Origin: Centroscyllium fabricii
Taxonomy: Eukaryota
DNA: 64,000 bases
Assembly (NCBI GenBank): GCA_051313645.2
Contig: JBNRSN020000001.1
Span: 397,048,001 to 397,112,000 of the forward strand
Reading direction: 5' to 3'
Part shown: positions 1,352-58,266 of the stretch, piece by piece
How positions within the stretch are numbered: position 1 is the stretch's first letter
How the letters are laid out: each line of letters begins with the position of its first letter
Made by a program: the position numbers and the translations under genes
The notes under the pieces: model-generated
The model's database searches: none
What the model was told of the DNA's origin: nothing
What the model saw: the letters and a program-made list of their open reading frames with translations, nothing else

Positions 1352-2111
1352 ACTGTGTGCAATGTTACAGAAGATTCACTAGTTTACATAAAAATGAGTC
1401 TGATGCAGCTTTTTTATTCCATTTGTTTCTTCATATACACACACACACTGCAATGATGTTAACTGTATTGAAATGCATCATTGTATCACTGAGAGTGTTG
1501 TTACTGTGACAAAAAATGAATAAAAGATTTATCCAGCAGTTTTTTTTGTATGAAGACAGCAGTGCTTTAAAAGCTTAGACACAAAAAATATTTTTATAGT
1601 TCTTCTTCCCTCAAGTCTTAATTGTTTTCACAAGTTTTTTTGGTAACAGGACATGATCTGAGGTTATTGTTAAATACAAATGTAAAGGCCCTGTCACACC
1701 TTGACGTTTTAGCCAGCCTATGCAAATGAGGCTAAAACGCTGAACTTTCGACACTTTGTTCAATTTTTGTTGTATAGTAGCGTATTGGACATATACATAA
1801 CGTATGCGTAACGTATTAGTAACGTACATGGAACGTATCGCGATCTTCATTGAAAATTGTACCAACGTGTTCTTAGCGTATTGGACGTATGCATAACGTA
1901 TGCCTAACGATAGTCTGACGTACTGGACGTATGCATAACGTATGCATAGCAGGCGCCAGCATATCGCAGACGATCAGGTGGGGTAGCCTACTCAAAGGCT
2001 ATCATTGGACGATTCAAATCATACCACTAGACTTTATAGTGCAGCTCCACACTCATTCCAGTTCTACATGAAAATCTGCTTTGAGAAGTCTGTTCTGACA
2101 AGTCTGTACAA

Positions 2112-3474
2112 ATGCCTAGGAAAAGTTCCAGGAATGCTGCCAGGAAGTTTCGTGGCCGTGGGCGTGGATGCATGGAGGATCCAGCACCCACACCCTTCCC
2201 ATCACGCTCACCCTCTGACGGAGAGGATGCTGCTTCCAACGCCTCTCGGGCATCGTCTGTGGCTGCGTCCGTGGCCTCCACATCCTCTCAGCCAACCGTT
2301 GCGAAGAAGAGGGCCAAGAAGACACAGTATTGTCTTGCTGTTGAGGAGGAGCGGCAGATGTTGGATTTCCTCTCAGATAACGCCATCCTCTGGGACATTA
2401 AAAAGACGGACTATCGGAGGGTGGACAAGAAGGCAAAGCTCTGGGAGGATCAGGCAAAGGACATGGGGAAGACTGTGGATCACCTTCAAGGGTGGTTCAA
2501 GTCCCTGCGAGACACCCACACCCGTCTCCACAAGAAGAAAAGCGGTGATGGCGCCCAGGAACTGACAGAGAGGGAGCAGTGGGTGAAGGCAAAGTTCGGC
2601 TTCCTCACGACTGTGGTCCGCCATCGTCCTGAGCCCATCCACAGTGTAAGTATAAACACATATTAATATCCATAATAATATTTATTTATATTACTTTTAC
2701 TGTACTTTGCCTCGTATTTTTGCTTTGTATTTTACTAATCATTTGTCATAATTGCAGGTAAAGGAAACCATTGCAGCACACAGCGGGGACCTCGAGGCTG
2801 GCGAGGCTGCCTGTGCAGATATGGTGTTGGACAGCACACCCTCCCCTGTCCCCAGGGGGAAGCGTGCACTGGAGGATGAGCAGCTGCACTCAAGGGTGCA
2901 GGAGACTGGGGAGATCCTCAGAAATCTGACGCAGCCTCAGCCCATCACAATCACCTCAGCCTTCGCCAACTACGTGCGTGACACCCTGGTCAGCATGCCC
3001 ACAGACCAATTCCAGGAGGCAAGGTTGCGCATCAGCAACATCTTCCATGAGATGCTGGTGGAGACCCCCATCTCCGTGCGATCAGCTTCAGCACCAGCTA
3101 CCTACACCCCCACGGCGTCGCGGATGTTCCAGCAAGATACCCACAGGTGCAGACACACGGCACCAGCTGCGTCAGTCTGTGGACCGTACATGCAACAGCC
3201 GCAGTACCAGCAGATGATGCCACAGTACAATATGATGCCTCCTGCCCCTCAGCATGTGTTCCAGTATCCTCCTCCTCCTCTGATGACGCAGCAGCCAAGC
3301 CCCGCCTCTTCATCTGCTGCTATAGGGTCGGCTGACCAGGTACAGAGCAAGAGCCAAAGCACCTTTGACAGTACTGAGGTGTTTAATATGTCAGGATTCA
3401 GCTTTTCCAGCGGTCCTAATGCTACAAGCAGCCCGTCTAAGGAGCTGAACACACTTCCACCATCAGAGGACTGA
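2112..3474 (+). CDS. Two-exon MADF (Myb/SANT-like) DNA-binding protein with C-terminal BESS-like motif, 416 aa; join(2112..2645,2758..3474)
   Basis: Exon 1 has a MADF pattern (MLDFLSDNAILWDIKKTDY...LWEDQAKDMGKTVDHLQGWFKSLRDTHTRL) and a basic NLS-like KKRAKK. The phase-0 intron 2646-2757 has GTAAGT, a branch-like tactaat and ttgcag. Exon 2 is in frame and contains SAFANYVRDTLVSMPTDQFQEARLRISNIFHEM (BESS-like) plus a P/Q-rich tail. AATAAA signals follow. Confidence 0.85.
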
Positions 3475-3482
3475 AAGGTGAT

Positions 3483-3892
3483 ATTGTTTTTGACATGTTT
3501 GTGCAATTTTGTATATAGTTTTGATTTTTCGATTGTTTTTGCCATGTTTGTGCAATTTTGTATATAGGTTTGATGTTTCAGAGAAGTTGAGATTGTTTTT
3601 GCCATGTTTGTGCCATTTTGTCTGTACGTTTTTAGACCATTGTTATCATGTTAAATTATTTAATAAAAGTTGAGCAAACTCTTGATGTTTGTTCCTGTTA
3701 TGTTAAGTTATTTAATAAAAGTTGAGCAAACTCTTGATGTTTGTTCCTGTTATCATGTTAAGTTATTTAATAAAAGTTGAGCAAACTCTTGATGTTTGTT
3801 CCTGTTATCATGTTAAGTTATTTAATAAAAGTTGATTCCTGTTATCATGTTAAGTTATTTAATAAAAGTTGAGCAAACTCTTGATGTTTGTA
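3483..3892 (+). repeat. Tandem repeats in the MADF gene 3' UTR: three ~50-60 bp T/G-rich units, then ~5 units of 37-55 bp each with AATAAA
   Basis: AATAAA at 3662, 3714, 3769, 3824 and 3861 within the unit gttatcatgttaagttatttaataaaagttgagcaaactcttgatgtttgttcct. Confidence 0.9.
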
Positions 3893-4010
3893 TTGTTTTA
3901 ATATTTAAATCATAAACAATAATTAACAATAATAAATTCATACACTTTGGAAAAGGTACAATAATATAATGGGGAGAGAGAGAGAGAGGGTGAATGAGTG
4001 GGGAGAGACC

Positions 4011-4044
<34 letters not shown>

Positions 4045-5696
4045 GTGGGGAGAAAAGGCTTTTTAAGATGTTCCTCAGGAGCTGTAAGTTAGAAACACGG
4101 TCAGTAAGTTCTGTGGTCGTCCGGAAGACGTCAAATACGTTGGAGTTACGTTACACATAAGTTCAACGCACGTTACGCATAGGTTAGACATAAGTTCCTG
4201 GAACGCTAGTCATTATCTCGACGTCTTTTGACGTATGACTAACGTGTGCCACCGATCGCCTAACGTGCCTGCAACGTATGGCCAGCGTATGTGGAACGCA
4301 TAAATTGCAACATTGATACGTCGTGATTTTTTGTGCATGCACAAAAAATCACAACTTATACGACGTATACAACTTATGGCCAGCGTATGCCAAAGTGCTC
4401 TTAACGTATGCATAACGTACCCATCACGTATCCGACGTAAACCGGCATATCAGCCAAATTTGCATACGCTGGCTAAAACGTCAAGGTGTGACAGGGCCTT
4501 AACACTGCTGTTACTTCAGGGGTTGTGGACTGGATATTCAGGACACACACGCTCCTTCGGTCTTGTTGCTTGCCACTTTAGTTTGAAGATGTTTAACCTT
4601 TTACCGCCATAAATGTTTACAGTCGTGCAGCAGAAGTGTGTCAGAGACCTCGGCAATGTTTTCAAAATGTCCTCAAGGGATGCAAATTGCTTAAGTCAAC
4701 ACCCACACATGTGCATATCTCTCCACTCTAGCCTCCCCTCCTCCCTGACCACCAGCTTTGACAAAAGTTATGGCGGTGTATCAACCAGCGCATAGGACCA
4801 GTGTTGTGTTCAATATTTTTCAAATGGATAATTTAGGCCTTTTTTTTGGTCTCCAGAAAGAAAATGGTCCCGTTTAAAAACAGCAGAGGAGAATAATGTA
4901 AACCACCCAAGGACTTGTTCCAGGAGTTGTAAACAGATGATAAATAAATTAAAGATCAGCATTTTCGCTGCGGTGATTTGATTTATGTTGCTGCATGTCA
5001 AAACCAAGACTCTGGTCAATAATGGCCTGATAGAATGTGCACAGCTAAGGAGGCAGAGGATTTTTAACTGGGAGAGCTGATTCATCATTAAGCTAGCTCA
5101 GTGAAAATGTTTCTGGGCAGCCGAATGGAGATCAATTAACTGCTAAGTCCATGGGAAAAAAATTAGCAACCTGCTGCACTCCATTTGCCGAGAGGTCAAG
5201 CACTAAGAGAGAGATAATTGCTGCGAGCAAGCAGAATGAATCGGGGATGAGCAGAAAGTGATGATGTATGTTCAGTGACAAGATACGTGACAGAGATTTA
5301 CGCCTGGGCCTATGACTGCTCGACTCGGCAAGGACACAAGGACAAGGGAAGGAGACCTGTGAAAAACAATTAGTGCTTCCACCGAGCGAGCAGTTCGTAA
5401 TTAGCCATGGCGTGTCAGCAACAGACAATTAGTGTTCTCAATTTTTAAAAAATATTTGGCCATCAATTATAATGCAGCAGTGAAAATATTTGACAGGAAG
5501 TGCCTATTTCGCAATCGCTACTCGTGCAGCAGACAGAAACGAAATACAGCAGTTTAAAAATGTTAGAAGATGGCAGATTCGGTAATCCTTTGTTGTATTG
5601 TCACTGAGGATAGTAATTCATCTCTTAATTGATATAAAGAGTAGAGAATTCACACCTAACTCGATCTGCAATTTTAAGAGATGTGGATCATTGATA

Positions 5697-6751
5697 CAGG
5701 TTGAGCACCGTTAATCCGGCACGCTCAGGACCAGGCTGGTGCCGGACCACTGAAAGTTCACTGAAGGTTCGGGGGGAGCGCGCGGTAGAACACTCCCTGG
5801 GGCCCGGAGTGCACGGTAGAACACTCCCCGGGGCCCATAGTGCACGGAAGAACACTCCCCAGGGCCCGGAGCGCGCGGGTAGAACACTCCCCAGGGCCCG
5901 GAGCGTGCGGTAGAACACTCCCCAGGGCCCAGAGTGTGCGGTAGAACACTCCCCGGGGCCTGGAGCGCACAGTAGAACACTCCCCGGGGCCCGGAACATG
6001 CAGGTAGAACATTCCCCGGGGCCCGGAGCGCGTGGTAGAACACTGCCCGGGGCCCGGAGCGCGCGGTAGAACACTGCCCGGGGCCCGGAGCGCGCGGTAG
6101 AACACTCCCCGGAGCCCGGAGCGCGCGGTAGAACACTCCCCGGAGCGCGCGGGTAGAACACTCCCCAGGGCCCAGAGCGCGCGGTAGAACACTGCCCGGG
6201 GCCCGGAGCGCGCGGGTAGAACACTCCCCAGGGCCCAGAGCACGCAGGTAGAACACTCCCCGGGGCCCAGAGCGCACAGTAGAACACTCCCCGGGGCCCG
6301 GAACATGCAGGTAGAACACTCCCCGGGGCCCGGAGCGCACAGTAGAACACTCCCCGGGGCCCGGAACATGCAGGTAGAACACTCCCCGGGGCCCGGAGCG
6401 CACAGTAGAACACTCCCCGGGGCCTGTAAAATGCAGGTAGAACACTCCCCGGGGCCCAGAGCGCACAGTAGAACACTCCCCGGGGCCCGGAACGTGCGGT
6501 AGAACACACCCCGGGTCCCGGAGCGCACGGGTAGAACACTCCCCAGGAGGGAGCCCGGGGATAGAACACTTACAAAACCTAAAAAAACAGAAACCCAAAC
6601 GCCCGACGCCTTCGGCGCTTGCTCGCCCTTCCCGGGAAACGGTGGCGCCGCTGAGCGGCTGCTCCGCAAAATGAAGAGTGCCGGTTTCCCATTGTGCCGG
6701 ACCACTGAAGGTGCCGGACCATCGGGTGCCGGATTATCGGTGCTCAACCTG
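5697..6751. mobile_element. pogo/Tigger-like MITE with expanded internal minisatellite
   Basis: 26-bp TIRs caggttgagcaccgWtaatccggcac; TA TSD at 5695-5696 and 6752-6753. Same family as 36878-37194. Confidence 0.9.
5779..6570. repeat. GC-rich minisatellite, ~25 units of 31-32 bp
   Basis: Unit gtagaacactccccggggcccggagcgcgcg. It explains the repetitive overlapping ORFs at 5688-6747. Confidence 0.95.
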
Positions 6752-8217
6752 TATTAATAGCCTCAACAACAATGCCACTTAATGCAGGGATACACAACCA
6801 TGACTTGGGGTTGCAGGGGGGCGGAGCTGGCTACCAAGAGTTAAGGAATAGCCTGTCTAAGGTCCACAGCCACTCCACATTCCAACATCACTTGTCATGA
6901 TGCTATCTTTAAACGTATTGCTTAAACACGGCTCTTCATCCAACTCAGTAGGTGAAACAAAGGATTCATTTGTGGTGTTTCCTTATGATTAAGACACTGT
7001 CAGGTTAGTGTATCAAAATAAATGGGCAACGTGAAATTAAGTCTGTGTTCAACTCCCTTATTACCTTTGAAGGTCTGGAAAAAAACTATACTGAAGGTGC
7101 AAAATAGGACCCCAATACACCATTGTGGGCACCTCTGAACTTCAATACTAATGGGGGTAAAATGCCTCTCGATAATTTTAGTAAAGGCTGAGTGCAAACC
7201 AGGAAATCCCATTTTGCTACAAACATTATTGACGAGAGAAATTATTGATGGGAGAAATTTCATCCCCCGAATGTTGCCGTGTAGTAAGATGGGAGAATTA
7301 GTCTCTTAATTGGTTGATGGTCCCAGGACGGTGACATTTTGTGACTTCATGTAAAACTAGCTGCTAAACAATGCAACTAGATTAGTCACAACAGATATGC
7401 TTGTGTACAGGGAGCGACCTGAAGCGCATGACATGCTTTAACCTCAAAGAAACAATGTGGTGGGTCCCTGTAAACTCAATCTCAGACAACAGAACTCCTC
7501 ATCATGAATCTTTTTATTTTGTGTGCTCCAATCATGGTTTCCATCATTATCTTTAACACTGGCTGCTGCTTACACGTCCGATGACTGCTGTCCTTTAATT
7601 ATACCGTGTAGAACAAAAAGATGAAGCAGAAAGCAAAAATCGAGGAGAGAAAGGATTAAAAAATAATAATGAATGTCTCCGGTTCAATGAAGTGCCAGGC
7701 TGAGACTCTGGTGAGATATTAACTCATCCCTCAGAGCAAGTGTCCGAGTCCCACTCAAGTCTCATTTTCTCAAAGCTGGGGAGGAAGTGATTGAATGCTT
7801 TTTAATTGCAGTGCCCTACTGACCTAGCTCTGCCTTATTTCCTGACTGGATGTGTAGTTTGTGTGTAAGTTTATGTGTGTGTATGCATGTTCAACCCAAT
7901 CTCATTTTTACTACTTCCGCTTATTTTCCCTACACTTGAGAACACGATAGGGGACATTTTCCTGGGGCTGTGCCCAGGTGATCCAGTGCACCTGGGCACA
8001 GCAAATACCAGATAGGTCAGAGCCCATGCCCTCACAGTGTCAGCTGTGGCTCAGTTGGCAGCACCCTCGCCTCTGAGTCAGAAGGTTGTGCGTTCAAGTC
8101 CCACTCCAGAAACTTGAGTCTAGGCTGATGCTCCAGTGCAGTGCTGAAGGAGTGCTGCACTGTTGGAGGTAAACTCAGGTGAACATAAAAGATTCCATGG
8201 CACTATTTCGAAGACAA

Positions 8218-26859: not shown

Positions 26860-28045
26860 GCTGCGAGGCACAAATGCTTGATTGGCTAGGCCAGGATTAG
26901 TGTATTCCTTGCATCCTGGGCAGCAATATTCTCACGTACTGCTGCCGCTGGTTGATGGGCCTCTGCAAGATGTTCGTTTTCTCTCTCCTCCTCGTCTGAG
27001 GAGGATATGTGACGAGCCATTTGATCCTCAGGAATCTGCAAGCCACGACGCTGTGCCACGTTGTGAAGTGCACTGCAAACCACGACGATTCTGGAGACCC
27101 TAGCTGCTGAGTACTGCAGAGCTCCACCTGATCTATCCAGGCATCTGAAGCGCATCTTTAGCAAACCGATGGTTTGCTCGATTATGGCTCGGGTGGACAT
27201 GTGGCTGGAGTTGTAGCGCTCCTCAGCTTCGTTGGATGGGCTCCTCAACGGCATAATTCGCTACATCTTCAGGGGATAGCCCTTGTCTCCAAGTAGCCAT
27301 CCGTTAAGTTGGTCTGGTGTACTGAATAGCGGAGGCACACTACACTGGTGCAGTATGAAGGAGTCATGGCAACTGCCAGGGTACTTGGCACAAACGAGCA
27401 ACATTTCCTTCTTGTGGTCACACACCAGCTGAATGTTCAGGGAGTGGAAGCACTTGTAGTTGACATGTGTGCAGTCAACGACACCCTGCACCCTTGGAAA
27501 GCATGCCAGATTAGCTAATCCAACCGCACGCACCGTGACACTTGCTTGATCCTCGGTGAAATGGATGTGATTGTGCACGATGGCAAAGAGGACATCGGTT
27601 ACTTTCGTGATGCAAGTGTGTGCGGCCGCCTGGGAGATGCCGCTGATGTTTGCTGCTGATCCCTGGAATGAGCCTGAGGCAAAAAAGTTGAGTGCAGTGG
27701 TGACTTTGACGGCCACTGGTAAGGGTTATCCACTTGGTCCTCTGGGCAGCAGGTCTTGCTGCAGCATTCCGCAGATGTCACCCACTACCTCTCGCGAAAG
27801 TCGGAGCTGCCTTTGGCACTGCTGCTCAGACATGTTTAGGTAGCTGACCCTGTGTCTCCTGCGCCGATGGGTTTCCATGCGCTGGCCCCAGGTGTGGCTT
27901 CAGGTGGGTGAGCAGCAGCTTGGCGCTACTGTTGTTGCTGCTGCTGCTGTTGGTGCTGCTGCTGTTGGTGACGGTGGCGAGAAGGGTTTCCCAGGAGGTC
28001 ACACTGGAGATGGGTGTCAGGCTCCAAACTTCCACAGCTATGGTT
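26860..28045 (-). pseudogene. Harbinger/HARBI1-like DDE transposase, disrupted
   Basis: [78 protein letters not shown]. In-frame stops (for example at 27261) and a deletion after DCTHV. Confidence 0.92.
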
Positions 28046-54590: not shown

Positions 54591-57581
54591 TTTCTCCATC
54601 CCCATATGGCCTTGCTGTAATTAAGCAGAGAAGTTCCGTTTGCATCGTTTTTGGTATTATGATTCCTGATCCAGCGAGGAGAACACCATCCTCCACCGAG
54701 ATGCCGTCTCTGATTGTCCAGTATTGTCGGATTTGGTTTTGGACCTGCTAGATCCTCTCCGGCCATCCCTGTATTACCTGTTGCATGAGTAGTTGTAACT
54801 CCTCATCTTTACCAGTCTCCTCTTAGATTTGGCTAAGCTTTGTGGGGGTGACATTTACGAGGTGGTGTATTTTTACTGTCAGGCCCTTCAGCTTGTGTTT
54901 TTCGTGTGCTGATAATCGAGACAATGTATCTGCCAGAACCATTTCTTTTCCTGGCCGATATTTTAACGCGAGGTCGTAACTTTGGAGTCTTAGCAGTAAC
55001 CTTTGCTGTCTTGCTGGGGCCTTGCTTAGATTTTTCTTGTAAATTTGTTCGAGTGGACGATGGTCACTGTCTACCTCAAATTTTCTTCTGTATAAGTAGG
55101 TGTGGAACTTTTCGCATCCGTATACTACTGCCAATAGCTCTCTTTCGATGTTTGCATATCTTGTCTCTGCTGATGTCAATGCCTTCGATGCGAAAGCTAT
55201 TGGTTTTCCTTCCTGTACGAGAGCTGCCCCTAGCCCTCTGGTAGAGGCATCTACCTGTAGGATGACAGGTTTTTTTCTATCGTAATAAGACAGGCTGGTT
55301 TCTTTACATAATAGTTCCTTTAGGTGTTTGAAGTTCCTCTCATGGGATTCTGACCATTGGTATTCAGTGTCTTCTTTTAGTAGTACTCTTAGGTTCGCTG
55401 TGTAGTCTGACATGTTCGGGATGGAAGAGCTCATATACTGGACCAATCCGAGGTAGCTTCTCAGCTCCTTCTTGTCGTTTGGAAGTTTCATCTCTGCTAT
55501 CGCTTCGACCTTTTCGGGATTAGGCTAGATACCCTCTGGTGTGTAGATCATGCCAAAACATTTGCACTTCGTACTTTTAACAATGCACTTCTCGGCGTTT
55601 AGCTTGTTGCCAGCCGTTCTGGTGCGCTCCATGGCCTTGTGTAAGTGTATGTCATGGTCTCTTTCATTTGTTCCGTAAACTTGGATGTCGTCAGCGATTC
55701 CAATGGCTCCTTCACAGCCTCTGTATGCTTCATCGATCTTTTGTTGGAAGATGTCTTGGCTGACTTTCAACCCGAATGGCAGCTGCAGGAATTAATAACG
55801 CCCCAATGGTGTGTTAAAAGTCGTCGGGTTAGTTGATTCTTCGTCCAGTTTTGCGTTCCAGTATCTGTTTCTGGCATCCAGTTTGGAGAAGACTTCGGCT
55901 CTTGCCAGTGCTGGTGTGTGATTTCTTCTAATGTTGGTGTGGGGTAGTGGTCCCGCTTTATTGCCTGGTTTAAGTCCTTGGGGTCCAGACAGATTCTGAG
56001 CCGTCCGTTCTGCTTTTCCCGTACCACAATCGAGTTTACCCAGTCTGTGGGGTCATTGACCTTTGCGATTATCTCTTTCTCTTCCATTTCTTTGAGTTCT
56101 GTGTATAATTTTTCCTTTAGCTCGATGGGTATTTTTCTTGGGGCATGGATGACGGGCTTTACCTCTGGATCTATTGTTATATGGTACTTGAACTCCCCGA
56201 AGCATCCTACTGTGTCGTCAAAACACTCTGGATACATGTCCATCACATGTTTCATGTCCTTGATTTGTGGACGTTTTTCCATTGGGGTGTTGCTGTCGAC
56301 TTTCTGTGATGTTTTTGTTAGTTCGTGGTTTATCGAGATTAACCCCAGCTACACGCAGCTGTTTAATCCCAGGATCGCCGGTCCCTCGGTGTCGGTCACA
56401 TAGAACATGCAGGTGATGTTTCTGCTTTTGTGTGTTCCTTTTAAATAGGTTATTCCGAGTTGTCTGATCTCGCTCCCCCCATACACTGTCAGCGTGATGT
56501 TGTTTGCTTTTAGACATCCTCTTTTCAGGTATCTATCTTTGCCCAAGTTTTCAGGGAAGATGCTCTGGTATATCCTCAGTGGAAGGATGTTGCTCTGAGC
56601 TCCTGTGTCCAACTTTACTTTTAGATTGACAGTTGTGGGCTGTCCTTCGATCCTCTTTCTAATCTGGATGGTAGTGTGCCATTCTTTCCTTGGGGTACTT
56701 GTTTCATGTGAGAGAACCTTTATTATTTCAATGTTCATAGTTTTGTCATACCCGCAGTCTTCATCATCTTGCTCACCCATGGTATGGATTTTGTTTTTCT
56801 TTTGTTGGTTTTGCTGTCCGCCTCTGCTTTTGGTGTGTCGCCCCTCTCTTTTAGCTCTGCACATCTTTTGCCAGTGGTTTGCTTTATCACACGTGTTGCA
56901 TCTTATACCATAAGCTGGGCATTTTCTTCTGTCTGTGTAGTCATGTTGTCTTCCGCAGTTCCTACACGTATTTTTCCCGCTGTCATATACTTGTCTTTTT
57001 GTGTTCTTTTCGCGCACTGCATCTACTCTGTGATCAGGTTCGGGAGTTGTCCGCATGCCAGCTGTATGAGTATTCAGCCTTTTCATCTGTTGTTTTGTGG
57101 CCTCGTGAGCCCTCGCTGCATTTAAAGCTTCTGTTATTCCGAGCTTTTCTTTCCCTATTAGTTCTTTCTGCACTCCTGCATGCGCTGATCCCCATATTAA
57201 TTTGTCTACCAGTCTTTCTTCTAGTTCCGTAAACTTGCATTTGCTTGCTTCGTTTTTTAGTCTCATCAGGAAATCTTCGGCCATTTCATATGGTTCCTGT
57301 CTTATGCTTTGGAATTTATACTTGTGTATGCGGTAATTTGATTTAGGCTCGAGATGGTTACTGAACCTTTCATAAATTTTCATAGGGTTCGTTTTATCCT
57401 CTTCAGATAAACTCCAGCTGTTATAGAGATCTAAGCCTTTTTCTCCCACCCACAGTAGAATGTAGCTGACTTTTTCTTCATCGGCAGAGCTTTTTAAAAA
57501 GCTTTTAAAAGTAAGTTCATATTTTTGCTTAAATTTCCAGAAAGCTTCCACAACATCGGCGGCTTCCCAGTTCATAATGGG
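54591..57581 (-). mobile_element. Ty3/Gypsy (Mag-like) retrotransposon internal fragment: gag-protease-RT-RNaseH-start of integrase; frameshifted, no LTRs
   Basis: Double CCHC knuckle CRNCGRQH...C and CNTCDKANHWQKMC; protease KLDTGAQSN; RT WVNSIVV...LRICLDPKDLN and IADDIQVYG; RNase H VDASTRGLGAAL, YANIERELLAVVYG, DHRPL. Confidence 0.93.
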
Positions 57582-58266
57582 GAGCATGCAGGTGCAGCGG
57601 GCGGTTAAGAAGGCAAATGGTATGTTGGCCTTCATAGCAAAAGGGTTTGAGTACAGGAACAGGGAGGTCTTGCTGCAGTTGTACAGGGCCTTGGTGAGAT
57701 CACAGCCCTGTACTGTGTGCAGTTTTGGTCTCCTTATCTAAGGAAGGACGTTCTTGCCATGGAGGGAGTGCAGAGAAGATTCACCAGGCTGATACCTGGG
57801 ATGGCAGGATTGATGTATGAGGAGAGACTGGGTAGACTGGGTTTGTACTCTCTGGAGTTTAGAAGATTGAGAGGGGATCTCATCGAAGTGTATAAAATTC
57901 TAACTGGTCTGGACAAACTTGATGCAGGAAGAATGGTCCCGATGGTCGGAGAGTCCAGAACCAGGGGTCATAGTCTAAGGTCCATAACTCATTTAGGACA
58001 GAGATGAGGAGGAATTTCTTCACCCAGAGAGTGGTGAACCTGTGGAATTCTCTACCACAGAGGGCGGTGGAGGCTAGTTCATTGAATATATTCAAGAAGG
58101 AGCTGGATGTATTTCTTAAGGCTAGAGCGATCAAGGGATACGGGGAGAAGGCAGGGACAGGGTACTGAGTTTGGATGATCAGCCATGATCTCATTGAATG
58201 GCAGAGCAGGCTCGAGGGGCCAAATGGCCTACTCCTGCTCCTATCTTCTATGTTTCTATGTTTCTA
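57582..58266 (+). mobile_element. CR1 3' fragment (young family)
   Basis: QFWSPYLRKDVLAMEGVQRRFTRLIPGM...SRTRGHSL; (tttctatg)n tail. Confidence 0.93.

Follow-up and report, generated by a model that had tools for sequence, protein, structure and literature searches.

Proteins encoded by eukaryotic transposons act in trans. For a non-autonomous copy, retaining its gene would thus be expected to bring no benefit. A 64,000-nucleotide stretch of the Centroscyllium fabricii genome (assembly GCA_051313645.2, contig JBNRSN020000001.1, positions 397,048,001 to 397,112,000, forward strand; hereafter the window) raises the question of why one such copy has kept it. The element at positions 1686-4499 has the ends of a Harbinger transposon and an intact, spliced gene for a Myb/MADF protein, and it has no transposase. 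The comparison with its relatives suggests, by analogy with known Harbinger systems, that it is a recently inserted Myb-only member of a split PIF/Harbinger family, whose Myb-only and transposase-only halves likely move by supplying in trans the protein that the other lacks. Through ~14% change the frame of a helper-only lineage has stayed open, and alongside it a cutter-only lineage that shares its ends has expanded.

The first-pass annotation, made from the window alone, had described the structure of the element, and that description was borne out. The element is bounded by 42-bp terminal inverted repeats (TIRs; 1686-1727 on the plus strand, beginning AGG, and 4458-4499 on the minus strand) with a single mismatch at position 33 and further mismatches at 43-44. 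A TAA target-site duplication (TSD) is present on both sides (1683-1685 and 4500-4502), in agreement with the empty-site joint described below. The remaining features are on the plus strand. The left subterminal region (1778-1951) contains an array of ACGTA(TG) motifs with an ~11-bp period, delimited by motif positions and repeats. The gene begins with an ATG at 2112 and consists of coding exon 1 (2112-2645, 178 codons), a 112-bp intron (2646-2757, GT donor at 2646 and AG acceptor at 2757) and coding exon 2 (2758-3474, 238 codons plus the stop at 3472-3474), and the spliced frame of 416 amino acids (aa) is free of stops. It is followed by a 3' untranslated region of ~55-bp tandem repeats (3641-3936) with six AATAAA signals at 3662, 3714, 3769, 3824, 3861, and 3931. 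By alignment to the same-TIR relatives L071 and L106, a deletion junction lies between 4080 and 4081 (4066-4090), where the whole transposase gene is gone; the alignment of the family's transposase gene with 1686-4499 covers 0 bases. The right subterminal region (4081-4457) carries ACGT(A) motif arrays, in variants common to transposase-only copies. The subterminal ACGTA(TG) arrays would serve as binding sites of the Myb/MADF protein, as in related systems.

The TIRs and 3-bp TNA duplication, the MADF gene and the transposase of the relatives place the family in PIF/Harbinger (PHIS). The transposase of L071 and L106 matched Pfam DDE_Tnp_4 (E 2.6e-30), and the proteins nearest to it are named HARBI1/ALP1-like. 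As the transposase sequence is absent from the window element, it is not an autonomous Harbinger, which has both genes. Exon 1 matched Pfam MADF_DNA_bdg (PF10545, ~2373-2582; E 1.8e-7, 31.9 bits, cut-off 22), so the MADF part of the proposed MADF-BESS architecture stood in the profile search. The BESS part did not: exon 2 of the window copy and 12 relatives gave no Pfam BESS match even at E 10, and BESS was absent among the 25 of 35 Pfam families listed for 58 aligned relatives. A helical segment at ~2860-3069 in exon 2, after which comes a P/Q/S-rich tail, may nevertheless be BESS-like, as a BESS cluster was the top ESM Atlas match for the window protein (0.93, 190/256 features; Pfam BESS on 32% of the cluster's members) and two helices were predicted in the segment by a single-sequence model (predicted local distance difference test score 72-85). 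Adf-1 and Dip3, to which the protein had been likened, are insect MADF-BESS factors encoded by fixed host genes without mobile ends. The likeness, a MADF domain plus a BESS-like helical segment, is one of architecture only. A hagfish protein shows 70% identity to the Myb exon, and the same splice junction is found in gene models of relatives from hagfish, teleost, and priapulid, which are predictions, not transcripts (e.g., P0001, '...PVNSVKETIAAHSGDL...'); unspliced calls read into the intron as 'VSIN'.

The TIR was probed across the 7.2-Gb genome, as had been proposed, and the copies were classified; Myb-only, transposase-only, and two-gene classes were all found with the shared TIR. Exact matches numbered 6,777 for the first 32 bp of the TIR, 2,377 for a Myb probe, 1,007 for a transposase probe, at least 1,683 for the Myb-only deletion junction, 602 for the commoner transposase-only junction and 348 for the two-gene-lineage junction including its own deletion derivatives, which make up about half of those on contig 1 (all controls 0). 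With at least 1,683 exact junction matches, the window element is not a single-copy deletion. Loci were fetched via the first listed TIR matches (60), the transposase probe (40), the Myb probe (40), and further transposase matches (21). The 60 unselected TIR-anchored loci comprised 19 Myb-only, 5 transposase-only, and 1 two-gene copy, 2 copies with Myb and a transposase remnant, and 33 with neither gene, the last having the size of MITEs (miniature inverted-repeat transposable elements) wherever both ends were resolved. Among 100 listed transposase-probe matches (66 read, 34 placed via a junction match within 1.5 kb), 88 were transposase-only, 11 two-gene, and 1 internally deleted, which extrapolates to ~890 transposase-only and ~110 two-gene copies in the genome, beside about 2,000 Myb-only copies. 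The 30 best matches to the window element were 2.7-2.9 kb long with an identity of 94-100%; each lies between TNA flanks of its own, and the Myb frame is intact in 24. Intactness is thus not special to the window copy, and 48 of 57 unselected Myb-only copies (84%) had an intact frame as well. The statement that this is the only intact gene in the 64 kb held loosely: no other stop-free frame of at least 170 aa resembles a whole gene, although a 462-aa gag-like frame is present at 56352-57737.

In each class of half-element, a whole transcription unit is deleted. One junction, the window's 4080/4081, was matched in 86 of 87 Myb-only copies, and the deletion reaches from the 3' region of the transposase gene as far as a point upstream of its TATA-like box. 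Transposase-only copies have two junctions, and the Myb gene is gone up to its poly(A) signal. The prediction of a complementary partner for a 'helper-half' was therefore supported by same-TIR transposase-only elements in the hundreds, mostly with full-length frames: 44 of the 58 copies read encode a full-length spliced transposase of 426-430 aa, and all three catalytic motifs are kept in 23 of the first 38. In the two-gene form (L106, 4,089 bp), the genes lie tail to tail: Myb is encoded by the plus strand and a spliced DDE transposase of 429 aa by the minus strand. An intergenic stretch of ~175 bp kept by both halves was missing in 8 of 8 two-gene copies read, and these copies are therefore not the parents of the halves; no two-gene copy of a long-intergenic type was present among the 100 listed transposase matches. 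The two-gene lineage also yields its own Myb-retaining derivatives with most of the transposase deleted (L065, L099, L178, L181, and L158; L099 is a tandem of two Myb elements), and these independent derivatives amount, as judged from their sequences, to a second route to Myb-only elements. A genome search with PF13359 gave 72,583 first-look candidates, of which 150 were scored; the Harbinger families found this way, far larger and unrelated, were rejected as partners, being only 25-33% alike to the family transposase.

The insertion in the window is recent. In 4 of 4 public runs (2 samples of 1 study, kind unrecorded), the contigs pass directly from 1682 to 4500, skipping 2817 bases that equal the element plus one TAA, and the depth at the joint is that of single-copy flank. 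The terminal branch of the window copy in the Myb tree is 0.004. The suggestion that it is simply a very recent deletion derivative did not hold: the insertion is recent although the Myb-only deletion is old within the family, one junction being shared by subfamilies up to 14% apart.

Along the lineage of elements, the Myb gene was retained. In the midpoint-rooted Myb tree, the subfamilies form a ladder with a depth of ~0.12-0.15 substitutions per site and tips of 0.000-0.012, and the two-gene copies join the most distant Myb-only branch. Across 86 Myb-only copies (L169, with a 1-kb insertion in the intron, was left out, as was the variable C-terminal tail), indels in the Myb frame shared by two or more copies were in frame in 25 of 25 cases vs 8 of 15 private ones (p 3e-4), and stops accounted for 0 of 356 shared vs 7 of 187 private substitutions (p 5e-4). 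Apparent stops at codon 3 of L162 and L189 were trimming artefacts, and both frames are intact. On these counts, the frame has been preserved together with its splice sites, even as the protein itself changes rapidly. Source copies with a broken Myb gene appear to have left no subfamilies, so that selection for the helper gene would have acted on the lineage of elements and not at the host locus.

The AT-rich intron (2646-2757) is 3-9 times less changed between subfamilies than any other region, with 0.06 shared variants per site vs 0.20-0.55 elsewhere and a normal private rate (p 5e-5 vs the coding region). In a metagenomic relative, P0002, a read-through tail resembles the translation of the intron though the exon is only 68% identical. 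Retention of the intron would, from its reading, truncate the protein after the MADF region, and regulated splicing or a cis element is possible. Shared change among Myb-only copies is at least 10-fold deeper than the tips and transversion-rich (196 of 356 shared vs 84 of 187 private); either the mutation rate seems to be much higher in active than in resting copies, or the subfamilies diverged before amplifying.

The two halves have also exchanged ends, since transposase-only copies carry the end variants of successive Myb-only subfamilies. In trees of both the left and the right end, transposase-only copies interleave among these subfamilies (at the right end, with one split at bootstrap 100), and the two-gene copies group with the oldest Myb-only ends in both. 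Of 17 transposase-only copies, six are mosaic: they have 6-7 of the 7 substitutions that mark the right ends of young Myb-only copies, yet are without the adjacent inner 12-bp deletion of those ends; the same six are among the most derived in the transposase tree (mixed support). Exchange among Myb-only copies is suggested by the window copy itself, in which a patch at 3336-3635 (limits set by 150-bp windows) resembles another Myb-only subfamily, L188: within 3336-3485 there are 4 differences to L188 vs 13 to L006, which is the closest elsewhere, and the patch reads as a mosaic formed through sequence exchange.

How the halves would work together can be proposed from studied Harbingers. According to the accessible sections of one report, neither Harbinger protein is dispensable, and the two function when supplied by different vectors (PMC2836001); passages of this and a second report describe a Myb-like protein that attaches both to the ends and to the transposase and imports the latter (PMC2836001, PMC9392472). 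By analogy with Harbinger3_DR and Ping/Pong, a Myb-only copy would supply the spliced 416-aa subunit that binds the subterminal ACGTA arrays; this protein would carry a transposase encoded by a transposase-only copy into the nucleus and load it on the ends; and together the two would cut any element with these ends, whether a half, a two-gene copy, or a MITE, and paste it into TNA sites. Our favoured guess for what keeps a trans-acting Myb gene under selection is a preference of its protein for its own ends. An extended form of the proposal is a bipartite cooperative replicator, in which the halves amplify together, the Myb protein and the ends it recognises drift as a matched pair (the helper favouring its own ends), the transposase half repeatedly acquires its partner's newest ends, and the two-gene form is left behind. 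We put this extended form forward tentatively, at somewhat less than even chances.

Several observations weigh against a family that lives by complementation. Both frames were open in 2 of 7 two-gene copies checked, one of them with all catalytic motifs, and two-gene copies make up ~11% of the listed transposase matches; given such copies, complementation between the halves is not obligate. MITEs spread gene-less, so trans action alone leaves a Myb frame kept in cis unexplained. The ratio of nonsynonymous to synonymous change (dN/dS), derived from pairwise and column-wise counts with changes not oriented, was 0.73-1.20 (kappa 1) or 0.91-1.48 (kappa 3) for the whole Myb gene between subfamilies; a value of about 1 among MADF-only copies had been named beforehand as speaking against a helper role, and about 1 is what the whole gene gave. 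The MADF region had 0.32-0.70 (kappa 1) or 0.43-0.92 (kappa 3), and the rest of the gene 0.93-1.48 (kappa 1) and higher at kappa 3. Singleton variants in the MADF region, an imperfect neutral control, were equally low (0.38-0.49), so the lower ratio of this region need not reflect purifying selection on residues. The transposase ratio was near 1 (0.83-1.27) at a depth of 0.01-0.03, too shallow to show selection. The runs with the empty site may come from a close relative, or reflect precise excision. In addition, the exact-match counts are lower bounds that favour young copies, and the sampled copies came mostly from two contigs.

Some of these observations would suit a simpler explanation, that Myb-only copies are ordinary non-autonomous derivatives moved by the proteins of two-gene copies, as passengers whose gene is intact through youth. 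The very short tips (0.000-0.012), the whole-gene ratio of ~1, the two-gene copies with open frames, and the ability of MITEs to spread with no gene in cis all fit it. Youth explains the tips, however, and not shared change of 0.12-0.15 per site in which 25 of 25 indels are in frame and no stop is shared; moreover, the two-gene copies are basal, without the sequence kept by both halves, and a two-gene copy of the long-intergenic type did not appear among the 100 listed transposase matches. We consider it unlikely. Slightly less probable still is a regulatory role, in which the Myb-only protein titrates or tunes the family, either repressing it by occupying ends or boosting two-gene copies as the limiting subunit, and does not mainly pair with the transposase-only lineage. 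By probe, there are ~2.4 Myb genes for every transposase gene, and the intron is unusually conserved, its retention ending the protein just past MADF in what might be a repressor form. A repressor would not, however, be expected to be favoured along an amplifying element lineage, and the transposase-only copies depend on some source of Myb protein and appear to have acquired young Myb-only ends.

That the window locus is becoming a host gene, kept as a MADF-BESS transcription factor, is by far the least probable of the explanations, although the first-pass annotation had offered incipient domestication as an option. The gene is intact and spliced with poly(A) signals, and Harbinger Myb genes have repeatedly been domesticated in vertebrates according to the available part of one report (PMC9392472). 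The element nevertheless has intact TIRs and TSD and at least 1,683 siblings, 84% of the unselected ones equally intact. An empty allele at the site in 4 of 4 runs, the short terminal branch (0.004), and thousands of near-identical dispersed siblings, each with its own target duplication, make domestication of this locus very unlikely.

With trans supply of the missing protein retained as the probable explanation, the closest known system is Harbinger-1M_cIno of Caenorhabditis inopinata, for which the accessible text of a 2026 report describes a partition into copies with MADF alone, with DDE alone or with both genes, and MITEs, with ends in common and TWA-type TSDs (PMC13668399). That text proposes trans complementation, not demonstrated there, calls the configuration unreported for the superfamily, and shows expression; of 258 copies, 15 have intact MADF genes and one an intact DDE gene, and only the MADF half expanded (PMC13668399). 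The shark family resembles it, as described there, in having MADF-only and DDE-only copies with shared ends, intact frames, and recent mobility (an empty allele and tips of 0.000-0.012). Unlike it, both halves are expanded here (about 2,000 and about 890 copies), evidence of frame selection and end exchange is available, and the family is known from DNA alone (compared with PMC13668399 as far as accessible). Open two-gene copies remain in the shark family (2 of 7 checked), so that it is not one with no functional two-gene copy left. The new aspect is that both halves expanded, the host being probably a vertebrate, and that there is evidence for selection on the frame and for exchange of ends; a split Harbinger itself was known. 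Complementing partial elements occur in other groups as well, such as CACTA, BARE-2, and HeT-A. The trans-complementation model proposed in one nematode is thereby extended to a case with both halves expanding, and can be tested with thousands of natural copies with matched protein and end variants.

Like zebrafish Harbinger3_DR and rice Ping/Pong with mPing, the family has a Myb-like protein, a DDE transposase, a 3-bp TSD, a precise empty site, and MITEs; unlike them, with both genes on one element in the sections consulted, most coding copies here carry one (PMC2836001). A teleost survey, in the part available, reports no single-ORF (open reading frame) Harbinger, in a context of autonomous single-ORF types (PMC9179366). 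The NuwaII group of PHIS, whose TNA target lies between C and G as far as its description was accessible (PMC4482050), shares the TNA duplication, genes for DDE and Myb/SANT proteins, a TIR length within 13-46 bp, and a two-gene form of ~4.1 kb; the shark family differs in a partial flank preference and a TIR starting AGG vs GG, the comparison being by description and not by phylogeny. NAIF1 and MSANTD, domesticated Harbinger Myb genes, have a Myb/SANT-MADF domain in common with the window protein, but are described in the available passages as fixed host genes without mobile ends, whereas the window element is a dispersed, polymorphic, end-bearing repeat (PMC9392472). Passages of a Pleurodeles paper report Myb or Harbi transcripts and do not mention split elements. 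No split Harbinger other than that of C. inopinata was found in the literature searched; Repbase, subscription journals, and supplements lay outside the search and may record Myb-only Harbingers.

The family transposase is 89-91% identical to a protein of Palaemon shrimp and 73-85% identical to other marine invertebrate and metagenome proteins near the top of the list. These identities suggest that the family likely reached its host by horizontal transfer.

Target duplications were compared across the family. The targets are TNA, preceded by C in 75 of 127 (59%) and followed by G in 62 of 127 (49%). Among 128 duplications of elements with both ends (L001-L200), 30 differ only at the middle base, as with TAA and TTA, the commonest being TAA on the left and TTA on the right (n=14); only 4 differences are at outer positions, and a single aberrant copy accounts for 2 of these. 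The available part of one study proposes that the cut is staggered across the duplication (PMC4561436). If the cut is staggered, an excised element would carry donor overhangs into the new site, and the mismatch would be at the middle base only; the data fit such carry-over, with recombination between copies as the rival explanation. A piggyBac-like behaviour offers an analogy. No description of mismatched Harbinger duplications was found in the literature searched, and they are a possible in vivo trace of Harbinger DNA cutting and joining.

MITEs of ~545-775 bp, composed of left and right ends, form about half of the TIR sample (L063-L119). Some have an internal partial end and are nested within one another or sit next to coding copies (L003, L069, L112), and one of the 30 best matches to the window element carries an adjacent MITE.

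Other elements occur elsewhere in the window. At 1-597, on the minus strand, lies a fragment of a long interspersed nuclear element (LINE) reverse-transcriptase region, with its best named matches in stingray and sawfish (57-59%), in keeping with a cartilaginous fish as the host. Inverted ends of 33 bp surround a GC-rich tandem array of 31-32-bp units at 5690-6758, which by this structure is probably another non-autonomous DNA transposon. The minus strand also holds, at 26910-27851, a broken transposase with two stops from a different and far more abundant Harbinger family and, at 54826-57737, frames in several pieces (462, 193, and 233 aa), which we take, from motifs, to be gag and pol of a long terminal repeat (LTR)-retrotransposon-like element.

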